From contig CANRND010000010.1 of NCBI GenBank assembly GCA_947631905.1, positions 2,827 to 66,826 on the forward strand: a DNA stretch of 64,000 nt, written 5' to 3'. The position numbers and the translations under genes are program-made. This DNA comes from an uncultured Clostridia bacterium. GTDB taxonomy: Bacteria; Bacillota; Clostridia; Christensenellales; Borkfalkiaceae. The notes beneath the pieces were generated by a model that had not been told where the DNA came from, made no database searches, and saw only the letters and a program-made list of their open reading frames with translations. The stretch's first letter is position 1. Every line of letters starts with the position of its first letter. This document shows positions 6,800-8,882 of the stretch, piece after piece.

Positions 6800-8882
6800 T
6801 GGCGTTCTCCTCGGCGCCGTTTTCGGCGTTTTTGTCTCCGTAAAGATGGCAAGCGACCCAGTGGGTAGGGCTCACCTGTACCATTCCGGGGTAATCTCCG
6901 TAGCACTTTTCGTTGCAACCCGAGCAACGCTCGCGGAAATAACAGTAGTTGGGCATATTGACGGGGTTGGGAACATTTCCCGGGATATTGAAGAGGGAAT
7001 CCGACTTCGAATCCATCGTGGGTTTGCTCTTTTGCAGACCGATCGTATAGGGGTGCTTGGGATCGTGGAAGATCTCGCTCGCCGTCCCCTGTTCGATGAT
7101 CCTGCCCGCGTACATGACGACGACATAGTCCGCCATTTCCGCGATCACGCCCAAATCGTGGGTGATGAGCAGGATGGAGCCGTTGATACGGTCTTTAAGG
7201 CCGCGCAAAAGGTCGAGGATCTGCGCCTGGATGGTGACGTCGAGCGCGGTGGTCGGTTCGTCCGCGATGATGAGGCGGGGATTTCCTTCGAGCGCCATAG
7301 CGATCATCACGCGCTGGCGCATGCCGCCCGAAAGCTCGTGCGGGTAAGACTTATACACCCGCTCGGGCATTGCGATGCCCACGAGATTGAGCATCTCGAT
7401 GGAGCGGCGCTTCGCCTCCTCTTTCGTGGCCCCCGGGACGTGCAGGAGGGTGACTTCGTCGAGCTGGTTCCCGATCGTGAACACGGGGTTGAGCGACGTC
7501 ATCGGCTCCTGGAAGATCATTGCGATCTGCCGTCCGCGGAGACGGTACATCTCCTTGATGGGCATCTGCGCGATGTCGAACACTTTCTCCTCCATTTCGT
7601 AGAGCTTGGTGCCGTATTCGTCGCGCTTCTGTCTGCGCTCGGTGACGGGATTTCCGTCTTTATCGAGTTTTTGCACGAGCAGGGGCTTGAACACTTTTCT
7701 TCCCTTCTCGTCCGTCTTCTGCCTGCGCTCGGTGAGCGGCTGTCCATCCTCCCCGAGAACGGGTTCCAAAACGGGTTTGAAGAGCTTTCTGCCCTTTCCG
7801 TCCGTGCGTTGGCGGCGCTCTGTAACGGGGTTGCCGTTTTCGTCGAGCTTGGGTTCGAGAATGGGCTTGAACACCTTCTTGCCTTTCTCGTCTCTCTTCT
7901 GCCGGCGCTCCGTCACGGGGTTGCCGTTTTCGTCGAGCTTCGGCTCATAGACGGGGCGGGTCATCTTTCTGCCCTTGCTGTCGTTCCTCTGCTTAAATTC
8001 CCGCACGGGCTGGCCGTTTTCGTCGAGCATGGGCTTGCCGTTCTTTCCGAGAACGGGATAGAGAATGGGGTTGCCCTCCGCGTCCGTCCACCACACAGGC
8101 TCCGTCCCCGTCTTTTTCATGACGGGTTCAAAAACGGGCTGACCGTTTTCATCGTCGTCCCAGACGGGTTCCATCCCCTTTTTCACATAGACGGGTTCAA
8201 AAACGGGCTGGCCGTTTTCATCGTCGTCCCAGACGGGTTCCATCCCCTTTTTGTCGTAGACTTGATCGAAGATCGGCTCGCCGTTCTCGTCCTCCGCCCA
8301 TTCGGGTTCCATGCCCACCTTTTTCATGACGGGTACGTACACGGGCTGGCCGTTTTCATCGTCGTCCCAGACGGGTTCTTTGCCTTTTTTCGCATAGACG
8401 GGATCGAAGATCGGCTGGCCGTTTTCGTCGTCCTCCCAAATGGGAATGGGCTTGCCGTCTTCGCCGAGCTTAAAGTCGAACGATTTGAAGCGGATGCCGC
8501 CCTCCACGATCTGCCCCTGCGGCCCCTGCAACAGGCGCATGACGGACATGCTCGTGACGGACTTTCCGCAGCCCGACTCGCCCACAATGCCGACCGTTGC
8601 GCCCTGCGGCACGTTGAAAGTGACCCCGTTTACCGCTTTCACCACGCCTTGGTCGGTGAAGAAGTAGGAGTGCAGATTTTCGACTTCGAGGATGTTCGCG
8701 GGGTCTTTCATCTCGGTGACGAACTCGGATTCTTCCGCCTTGCGGTTCTTGAATTTTTCGAGCCGCTTCATCACCTTGTTGTTTTCTTTGGCGATGGCGC
8801 GGACCTCTTTCCCCGAGAGATAGTGCTTTTCCTCTTTTACGGGAGCCTCCCCGCCATCCGTCTTTTTCTTAAACAAATTCAT
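6789..8882 (-). CDS. oppD: Oligopeptide ABC transporter ATP-binding protein (OppD type) with a ~300-aa internal tandem-repeat insertion
   Basis: Walker [11 protein letters not shown] (res ~101-110), Q-loop region IAMIFQEP (res ~453-460), [19 protein letters not shown], and a C-terminal [14 protein letters not shown] motif. Residues ~138-432 between Walker A and the Q-loop are repeats. Confidence 0.9.
7587..8471 (-). repeat. In-frame tandem repeats inside oppD (69-bp/23-aa type and 90-bp/30-aa type)
   Basis: Type A is 5-6 copies of (V/M)[21 protein letters not shown]. Type B is 4-5 copies of [30 protein letters not shown]. The copies at 8121-8189 and 8190-8258 differ at only a handful of nucleotides. 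Confidence 0.9.

Follow-up and report, generated by a model that had tools for sequence, protein, structure and literature searches.

The repeat insert in OppD

The window analysed here, a 64,000-nucleotide stretch of contig CANRND010000010.1 from an uncultured Clostridia bacterium, carries an oppD gene whose product contains about 300 extra residues, arranged as two families of tandem repeats, within its ATPase domain. The gene starts one base 3' of the oppC stop codon and its end overlaps the start of oppF by 11 nucleotides, and the genes around it were assigned to an oppABCDF operon (Table 1). By motifs, domains, predicted fold and operon, the protein is an Opp/Dpp-family ATPase. Pfam searches returned ABC_tran (PF00005) at 87.4 bits (cut-off 25) and oligo_HPY (PF08352) at 63 bits (cut-off 27.1). 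The NCBIfam model for E. coli-type OppD, NF007010, was not reached (334.8 bits against a curated cut-off of 575), and the protein is therefore called the D subunit of the Opp/Dpp family by its operon position, and not an equivalog of E. coli OppD.

A full-length model was built with AlphaFold2 on an 89-sequence alignment, with a mean predicted local distance difference test (pLDDT) score of 76.8. A Foldseek search with this model gave ATP-binding cassette (ABC) nucleotide-binding domains as the sole matches, E. coli OppD (8z21_C) at E = 2e-25 with a template-modelling (TM) score of 0.89 normalised to the target. Four cysteines are invariant across the same alignment, and their spacing is identical to that of the [4Fe-4S] cluster ligands of E. 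coli DppD, Cys 284, 290, 297 and 315 (PMC12136057), making them putative ligands of such a cluster. The protein thus resembles known OppD and DppD ATPases (E. coli OppBCDF 8z21 and DppBCDF 8z1v-8z1y, M. tuberculosis OppABCD 8j5q) in its nucleotide-binding motifs, its oligo_HPY domain and its operon, but differs from them by the insert of about 300 residues and by a 62-residue N-terminal extension. This extension is also present in relatives without the large insert, and the helix predicted within it has 10-residue block mean pLDDT values of 78-92 in the full-length model.

An insertion of about 300 residues between Walker A and the Q-loop had been claimed in an initial annotation and was confirmed, as the two motifs lie 346 residues apart compared with 40-50 in relatives. 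Among 146 Opp/Dpp ATPase open reading frames (ORFs) out of 80 related genome loci, this spacing was 40-49 residues in 124 and 50-59 in 11. Residues 64-135 and 443-678 of the window protein aligned to chain residues 4-73 and 81-317 of M. tuberculosis OppD (8j5q), which has 7 residues where the window protein has 307. The span first assigned to the insert, 7587-8471 on the minus strand (residues 138-432), is correct, as are the unit sequences given for it, and the five to six copies of a 23-residue unit and four to five of a 30-residue unit counted there are matched by six A units and five B units. The accompanying claim of an open frame with all ATPase motifs kept was borne out, the signature, Walker B, H-loop and four cysteines all being present, and that of an intact ATPase core is supported by the two Pfam domains and, at the level of a model, by the structural match to 8z21_C.

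Tandem Repeats Finder reported a 69-nucleotide unit repeated 4.9 times at 8101-8438 (score 343), and a 90-nucleotide unit in two overlapping rows spanning 7683-8035 (scores 235 and 228). The first and last A units are divergent, and the last B unit is kept throughout the clade of close homologues, its end making the returning strand. The A array is acidic and the B array basic, with 38 Lys or Arg in the 143 residues over which its charge was computed. The whole insert stands in place of the tip of the hairpin after the Walker A helix, in agreement with its earlier description as a large charged appendage on the beta-subdomain. Charged residues make up 120 of its 307 positions (about 40%), and Pro and Gly 59 of 307 (about 19%). 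Its hairpin motif occurs ten times in OppD and once elsewhere in the window, in an S8 protease, so that it is not a window-wide habit.

Table 1. Features of the opp locus and of the rest of the window, in window coordinates
Feature	Position	Strand	Remarks
oppD	6789-8882	-	Longest ORF over the flagged coordinates; 697 amino acids (aa) and stop
N-terminal extension of OppD	8697-8882	-	62 aa; common to the clade; predicted helix at residues 24-45
Walker A, GESGCGKS	8559-8582	-	Residues 101-108
Outgoing hairpin strand after Walker A helix, lengthened	8469-8516	-	Residues 123-138; base of arm
A array, six acidic 23-aa units	8046-8468	-	Residues 139-279; net charge -23
A unit boundaries	8394-8468, 8325-8393, 8256-8324, 8187-8255, 8118-8186, 8046-8117	-	
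Linker KNGKPM between A and B arrays	8028-8045	-	Residues 280-285; presumed far end of arm
B array, five basic 30-aa units	7578-8027	-	Residues 286-435; net charge +12 (computed over residues 288-430)
B unit boundaries	7938-8027, 7848-7937, 7758-7847, 7668-7757, 7578-7667	-	
B1/B2 junction	7938-7940	-	Site of one extra 90-nucleotide B unit in L087
Q-loop strand, IAMIFQEP	7503-7526	-	Residues 453-460; Q-loop Gln is Q458
ABC signature, LSGGMRQR	7311-7334	-	Residues 517-524
Walker B, RLIIADEP	7254-7277	-	Residues 536-543
H-loop, ITHD	7155-7166	-	Residues 573-576; H-loop His575
Four Cys	6849-6944	-	Cys 647, 653, 660, 678; spacing 6/7/18
OppF	5597-6799	-	Second ATPase
N-terminal extension of OppF	6620-6799	-	About 60 acidic Glu/Ala-rich residues
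OppC	8884-10026	-	BPD_transp_1 permease
Extracytoplasmic loop of OppC	9646-9693	-	Contains VENGAPVLDENGEQIV
OppB	10040-11035	-	BPD_transp_1 permease
OppA	11163-13976	-	SBP_bac_5 binding protein, 937 aa
Small downstream ORF	5328-5597	-	About 89 aa; overlaps oppF end
Protein without a Pfam family	14021-15649	-	542 aa
Cell-envelope-type protease (as marked)	15651-23201	-	2516 aa
ORF	28965-38189	-	3074 aa
FMN riboswitch	44761-44878	-	104.8 bits

Descent, selection and assembly of the arrays

The 120 closest homologues form a tight clade with 75-90% identity outside the insert, and are annotated merely as Clostridia or Clostridiales metagenome-assembled genome (MAG) proteins. All 120 carry at least one A-like and at least one B-like unit (...IRFKSxDFK-GKPIPIYExDENG...KLDKxGx...), and in remoter relatives the place is taken by a plain hairpin, IRYNAGEKVYDV, with Walker A and the Q-loop 50 residues apart. 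From there the spacing forms a graded series, through about 95-112 (1A+1B) and 164 (2A+2B, for example P0001, which is syntenic at L081) to 346-376 (6A+5B, 5A+6B and 6A+6B). The window array, with six acidic and five (possibly six) basic units, stands at the expanded end. The A:B states observed were 1:1, 2:2, 6:6, 6:5 and 5:6, equal or off by one in every regular allele, and strongly unequal states (6:2 or 2:6) were absent among the alleles observed. The insert arose by in-frame tandem duplication of 69- and 90-nucleotide units, and the starting point was a module of one acidic and one basic unit common to this clade of gut Clostridia OppD. A foreign or mobile origin was excluded, since the GC content of the insert (0.56-0.58) equals that of the rest of the gene and the units are traceable to the clade's own basal module. 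Judged by the flanking genes, species with 2+2 units are as close to the window as species with 6+6, giving a star-like picture; within the genus, four A and four B units were either gained together or lost together. The internal units of P0097 are almost identical to each other, which points to recent re-expansion or gene conversion.

Substitution patterns in the arrays were compared with those in the rest of the protein. Relative to the ortholog at L082, at a dS of 0.8-1.1, the A array has a ratio of nonsynonymous to synonymous divergence (dN/dS) of 0.060 and the B array one of 0.085, compared with values of 0-0.03 in the catalytic core and 0.05-0.07 in the termini; with L084 as the reference, the ratio for the arrays is 0.17-0.18. 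Comparison of the gene's paralogous units with one another found synonymous sites to be largely saturated, the proportion of synonymous differences (pS) being mostly 0.4-0.87 (pooled values 0.59 for A and 0.70 for B), and amino-acid identity reaches 0.73-0.91. Units B2 and B4, for example, have a pS of 0.83 and a corresponding nonsynonymous proportion (pN) of 0.14, units A2 and A5 a dN/dS of 0.10, and A4 and A5 are one recent pair with a pS of 0.15. Across 32 A and 44 B units, several positions that lie outside the search pattern are 0.9-1.0 conserved, namely E6, P21 and V22 of the A units and E10, Q13, D16 and K21 of the B units. The low dN/dS together with these conserved unit positions shows that the arrays are under purifying selection, and argues that their peptide is translated and constrained.

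A short tandem repeat may be mis-assembled, and the array or its length could in principle have been produced in this way. Several findings are of the kind that such an error would leave. Contig L087, at a coverage of about 2x, is 100% identical in nucleotide sequence across the whole gene except for one additional 90-nucleotide B unit, and its two adjacent B copies differ at only 4 of 90 nucleotides, the kind of near-identical copies that short-read assemblers collapse. Contig L001:1-880, from a Candidatus Stercoripulliclostridium sp. MAG, the nearest named genome, starts within the OppD insert, a sign that this repeat tends to interrupt short-read assemblies and that the arm may be under-reported in MAG catalogues. 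In P0111 (539 aa) the stretch that runs from Walker A to the first hairpin is exactly repeated (…KLDAH twice), which resembles mis-assembly and reflects either that or a recent large duplication.

Against an artefact, most units differ from each other by 10-50% in DNA and hence are not collapsible, related assemblies show the same 6+5 or 6+6 layout, and all length variants are in frame. A public collection holds an identical 697-aa protein (P0095). Related assemblies carry versions of 697-727 aa (P0095, P0096, P0097 and P0185-P0191), P0096 having 727 aa, P0097 723 aa and further versions 702-727 aa; P0186 and P0188 differ by one A unit. P0096 occurs in two assemblies, L082 and L083, one from NCBI and one from ENA, and its units align with those of the window protein position by position, with unit-specific substitutions shared. 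Mis-assembly as the source of the array is thus extremely improbable, and unit divergence and positional orthology rule it out for the insert as a whole, which on this sequence evidence is genuine. The possibility of an assembly artefact named with the initial annotation therefore fell away for the whole insert, which is found in related assemblies too, and stood only for the B count, which may be off by one given L087. This one-unit uncertainty could come from a collapsed repeat or from true polymorphism, and collapse of one B unit in the assembly of this window was given a little under an even chance.

Predicted fold, inserts in relatives and neighbouring genes

In the full-length AlphaFold2 model the insert consists of strand and turn only, with 10-residue block means mostly of 80-90, falling to 38-71 over residues 201-240 and to 64-75 over residues 331-360. 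The Walker A helix leads into a strand extended to 15 residues, the A array forms strands of about 16 residues with five-residue DENGQ turns between them, and the B array has two strands of roughly 10 residues per unit. The chain re-enters via residues 430-436 into the helix and strand before the Q-loop, giving the order Walker A helix, strand, turn, strand, Q-loop strand. A model of the insert alone had a mean pLDDT of 73.6. The insert is thus predicted to be an elongated all-beta meander of hairpins with D-E-N-G type turns. Structure prediction and a survey of homologues, both proposed with the initial annotation, accordingly returned an insert modelled as all-beta and a copy-number series running from 1+1 to about 6+6.

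Searches with the insert alone found no Pfam family at threshold. WW_1 (PF18507) came nearest, at 24.9 bits (cut-off 25), and no single stretch of it passed; RHS_repeat (PF05593), Lipoprotein_15 (PF03640) and the choline-binding repeats were not reached, and nothing else came close. NCBIfam gave 0 families with the insert, a sequence search of the PDB gave a phiKZ baseplate protein as its sole match (E = 0.46), and Foldseek with the insert-only model found nothing below E = 0.1 in the PDB or in the viral structures of BFVD, the best match in each having E = 0.13. The superpositions had TM scores below 0.1 and root-mean-square deviations (RMSDs) of tens of angstroms, values to be expected for a long non-globular object. 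The initial view that no characterised domain is present therefore agrees with the absence of any annotated family matching the insert in Pfam, NCBIfam, the PDB and BFVD.

The weak top structural matches are themselves hairpin-repeat proteins: the phiKZ baseplate protein, Rhs, TcdB and a choline-binding endolysin. An exhaustive HMMER search with the insert returned mostly long repetitive proteins rich in D-E-N-G-x-P-V type turns. Two of these are P0035, whose N-terminus is signal-peptide-like, and P0038, which is Gln-rich. Homology to these was considered and set aside in favour of motif-level similarity. Like the window insert, known beta-hairpin repeat proteins (RHS/YD, choline-binding, clostridial toxin CROP and PHIKZ087 of phage phiKZ) have units of 20-30 residues, and their hairpins likewise have a closing D-x-x-G turn, after which come Pro and a hydrophobic residue. 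The window array differs in lying inside a cytoplasmic ATPase domain, whereas P0035 has a signal-peptide-like N-terminus, and in having no profile match at threshold.

Other sequences were found at the same hairpin tip. P0036, P0103 and P0104 (665-674 aa), three cluster representatives from the same OppD clade and the same protease-oppABCDF operon, carry there a stretch of about 230 residues, which includes four segments of 19 residues that are strongly hydrophobic and is bordered by A-like and B-like hairpins; the genes lie in two assemblies, at L085:7001-8998 and L086:1757-3754. The four segments are predicted transmembrane helices, and an integral membrane module inside an ABC nucleotide-binding domain would be unusual in its own right. 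P0153, P0161, P0184 and relatives (513-523 aa; P0153 was seen on 46 contigs) have at the tip NWIQTAAKTVAGKTVELVNKIKTKVKKK, which looks like a basic amphipathic helix, followed by an acidic Glu/Ala-rich low-complexity stretch. OppF genes in Lachnospiraceae, Ruminococcus and Clostridia MAGs (L048 near 6987, L051 near 6922, L071 near 6946 and L077 near 6982) have 213-234 aa between Walker A and the Q-loop, with normal spacing in the neighbouring OppD; these OppF inserts are Lys/Glu/Ala-rich, helical and coiled-coil-looking.

The Mycoplasma mycoides JCVI-syn1 models for OppD (NF043079, MMSYN1_0167) and OppF (NF043078, MMSYN1_0168) also have a large insert in exactly the same place, of about 223 positions in OppD and about 410 in OppF. 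Window residues 64-133 and 438-686 correspond to positions 1-69 and 293-540 of the 561-position model NF043079, with only these flanking parts aligned (313 bits against a cut-off of 740), and the insert alone matched neither Mycoplasma model. The Mycoplasma inserts are not known to consist of tandem beta-hairpin repeats. A literature search on inserts in OppD and OppF, on Mycoplasma Opp ATPase inserts and on the peptide motifs yielded no relevant account and no published function. The initial statement that such a module has no characterised role holds in this respect and needs refinement in another, as inserts at this site have precedent in the Mycoplasma models and in other Clostridia Opp ATPases. 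The hairpin after the Walker A helix is thus an already known insertion hot spot, and what is new is the tandem bipolar beta-hairpin array.

A loop of OppC and P0053, an OppB-like fragment from another organism with several D-E-N-G-type hairpin repeats in an external loop, indicate that the same hairpin type also expands in external loops of Opp permeases. OppA is about twice the usual size, its best SBP_bac_5 stretch covers residues 536-824 only, and its N-terminus is lipoprotein-like (…LLAGCGG). OppF has an acidic N-terminal extension (Table 1). The small ORF 3' of oppF was kept in 4 of 4 related loci examined (85-96 aa); its product, in which the motif Y-x-DDGST-x-ADMSGT is invariant and the C-terminal part is a hydrophobic helix, may be an undescribed sixth component of the transporter.

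Directly upstream of oppA is the 2516-aa ORF, marked as a cell-envelope-type protease because its orthologs in L081, L084 and L085 have Peptidase_S8, PA, fn3_5 and LRR_5 domains; the 542-aa protein comes after it. The protease, the 542-aa protein and the opp block are syntenic in relatives, which suggests a system dedicated to degrading proteins and taking up peptides. Between the opp operon and rpsJ, L081 (11151-13866) and L082 (11921-14554) have LPG_synthase_TM, CDP-OH_P_transf and PS_Dcarbxylase; these three phospholipid-synthesis genes are absent from the window (4955-5327) and from L084. Elsewhere in the window are a 3074-aa ORF and a flavin mononucleotide (FMN) riboswitch, the sole Rfam match in the window at the gathering threshold.

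Proposed architecture and function of the arm

Taken together, the sequence comparisons indicate that the insert is a selectively maintained outgrowth of one hairpin of the antiparallel beta subdomain, the one following the Walker A helix. OppD is otherwise normal, and the catalytic machinery is untouched by the insert. We hold this structural and evolutionary description with high confidence. The acidic outgoing A limb would pack against the basic returning B limb to form a charge-complementary, two-limbed arm, because the chain exits and re-enters at one point, the A and B counts track each other, and the two charges are opposite. Arm length would then be set by copy number, with each A/B pair probably adding a rung.

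The Walker A helix runs away from the nucleotide and the next strand must run back towards it, so that the tip of the hairpin would sit at the adenine-binding end of the beta subdomain. By the OpuAA and ProV sequences, the insert of OpuA is presumably located in the connection of the first two strands, at the same end as the OppD tip. This cationic helix-turn-helix of the OpuA nucleotide-binding domain is described as near the membrane, where it senses ionic strength and gates transport via anionic lipids (PMC7673798). Given the position of the tip at the adenine end, the OpuA insert near the membrane, and the cousins with four predicted transmembrane helices at the tip, the arm would lie next to OppB and OppC and follow the cytoplasmic face of the membrane. 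In this position it would act as an electrostatic contact, or as a docking or spacing element, that modulates or organises the transporter with the ATP chemistry unchanged. This membrane-proximal electrostatic or docking function, drawn by analogy, is the functional reading that we favour, tentatively and at clearly less than even odds.

The OpuA sensor is what the arm would most plausibly work like. Both the OpuA/ProV element and the arm are lineage-specific charged additions to the nucleotide-binding domain of a type I importer, but the former is about 25 residues, alpha-helical and cationic, and the latter is about 300 residues, predicted to be all-beta, and bipolar in charge. A further parallel is the regulatory insertion in nucleotide-binding domain 1 of CFTR, a lineage-specific element of the antiparallel beta subdomain that is dispensable for catalysis and modulatory. 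It shares with the arm its kind of location and its restriction to a lineage, and differs in being about 30 residues, disordered or helical, phosphorylated, placed before Walker A, and non-repetitive.

Several observations weigh against a conserved beta arm of two limbs with a role near the membrane. The arm is overall net acidic (-12), which argues against simple binding to anionic lipids. Residues 211-234 have pLDDT values below 50, the insert-only model has a predicted TM score (pTM) of only 0.45, and the charge, Pro and Gly composition also resembles that of a disordered polyampholyte. A congeneric species has only 2+2 units, indicating that the extra arm length is not essential to the transporter. 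Finally, the lengths of neighbouring genes (OppF, OppC and the small downstream protein) showed no co-variation with arm state, OppF being 398-408 aa and the small downstream protein 85-96 aa across the states. With these points included, we regard the explanation as a whole as moderately probable.

The main rival is that the hairpin tip is a permissive surface site where slippage-prone repeats expand and contract, the array having no specific function and selection acting only for solubility and non-disruption. The same site does take unrelated sequence, as seen in the Lys/Glu/Ala-rich and four-helix variants, the helical OppF inserts and the Mycoplasma models. Copy number also varies by one unit between near-identical strains and by four units of each type between congeneric species, 2+2 alleles are viable, and no partner gene scales with arm length. 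A tolerated passenger is nevertheless unlikely, as dN/dS stays at 0.06-0.09 over about 290 codons, near the values of the protein's own termini and far from neutral, old paralogous units keep their peptide despite saturated synonymous sites, unit-specific residues are conserved between species, and the A and B counts shift jointly, not independently. Purifying selection on individual positions also speaks against the possibility that the insert is a flexible charged tether or 'entropic bristle', with hairpins over-confidently predicted by AlphaFold2. The richness in Lys, Glu, Asp, Pro and Gly, the low confidence in the middle units and for the insert alone, and the lack of any structural neighbour in the PDB or BFVD, with RMSDs of tens of angstroms, would all fit a disordered polyampholyte. 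The presence of Gly in every turn with Pro next to it, and of Trp, Phe, Tyr or Val at fixed positions, is instead the pattern of structured repeats, and the units adjacent to the core reach pLDDT values of 85-95, making disorder decidedly unlikely.

The acidic D-D-D-E-N-G turns could also be read as calcium or magnesium sites of the DxDxDG type, a motif reportedly defined by Rigden and Galperin in 2004, that would have a structural or sensing role. The sequence pattern DDDENG occurs in units A2, A4 and A5, with near matches in A1 and A3, and Asp at A position 12 and Gly at position 15 are invariant, yet both are fixed by the search pattern. No EF-hand, dockerin or thrombospondin-type Pfam family was matched, the turns do not keep the register of the canonical loop at its hydrophobic and distal acidic ligand positions, free calcium is low in the cytoplasm where this protein resides, and D-x-N-G is also simply a good tight-turn sequence. 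We therefore consider an array of divalent-cation sites very unlikely.

Few known protein modules are as conserved as ABC nucleotide-binding domains, and a large structured element added to one is usually a sign of regulation, as with the C-terminal domains of MalK and MetN, the OpuA sensor and the CFTR insertions. Here a surface hairpin of OppD has been turned into a conserved repeat arm of roughly 300 residues, with a natural series of 1+1, 2+2 and about 6+6 units. At its most speculative, and this we think unlikely to hold, the arm would be a copy-number-tunable, charge-zippered structure of two beta limbs under the membrane that gates or clusters the transporter electrostatically or docks a partner from the cytoplasm or the membrane, within a wider platform for new modules at this hairpin that extends to a four-helix membrane domain, and would constitute a new class of importer appendage. 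The natural allelic series offers ready-made constructs for testing a role, and the breaking or collapse of such repeat loci in metagenome assemblies is a practical warning. Even an arm without a role would be a clear example of how much repeat expansion a catalytic domain can bear while under purifying selection. If a regulatory or organising role is true, the arm would represent a new control of peptide uptake in gut Clostridia that are abundant but uncultured, and in which this transporter goes together with a giant cell-envelope protease.

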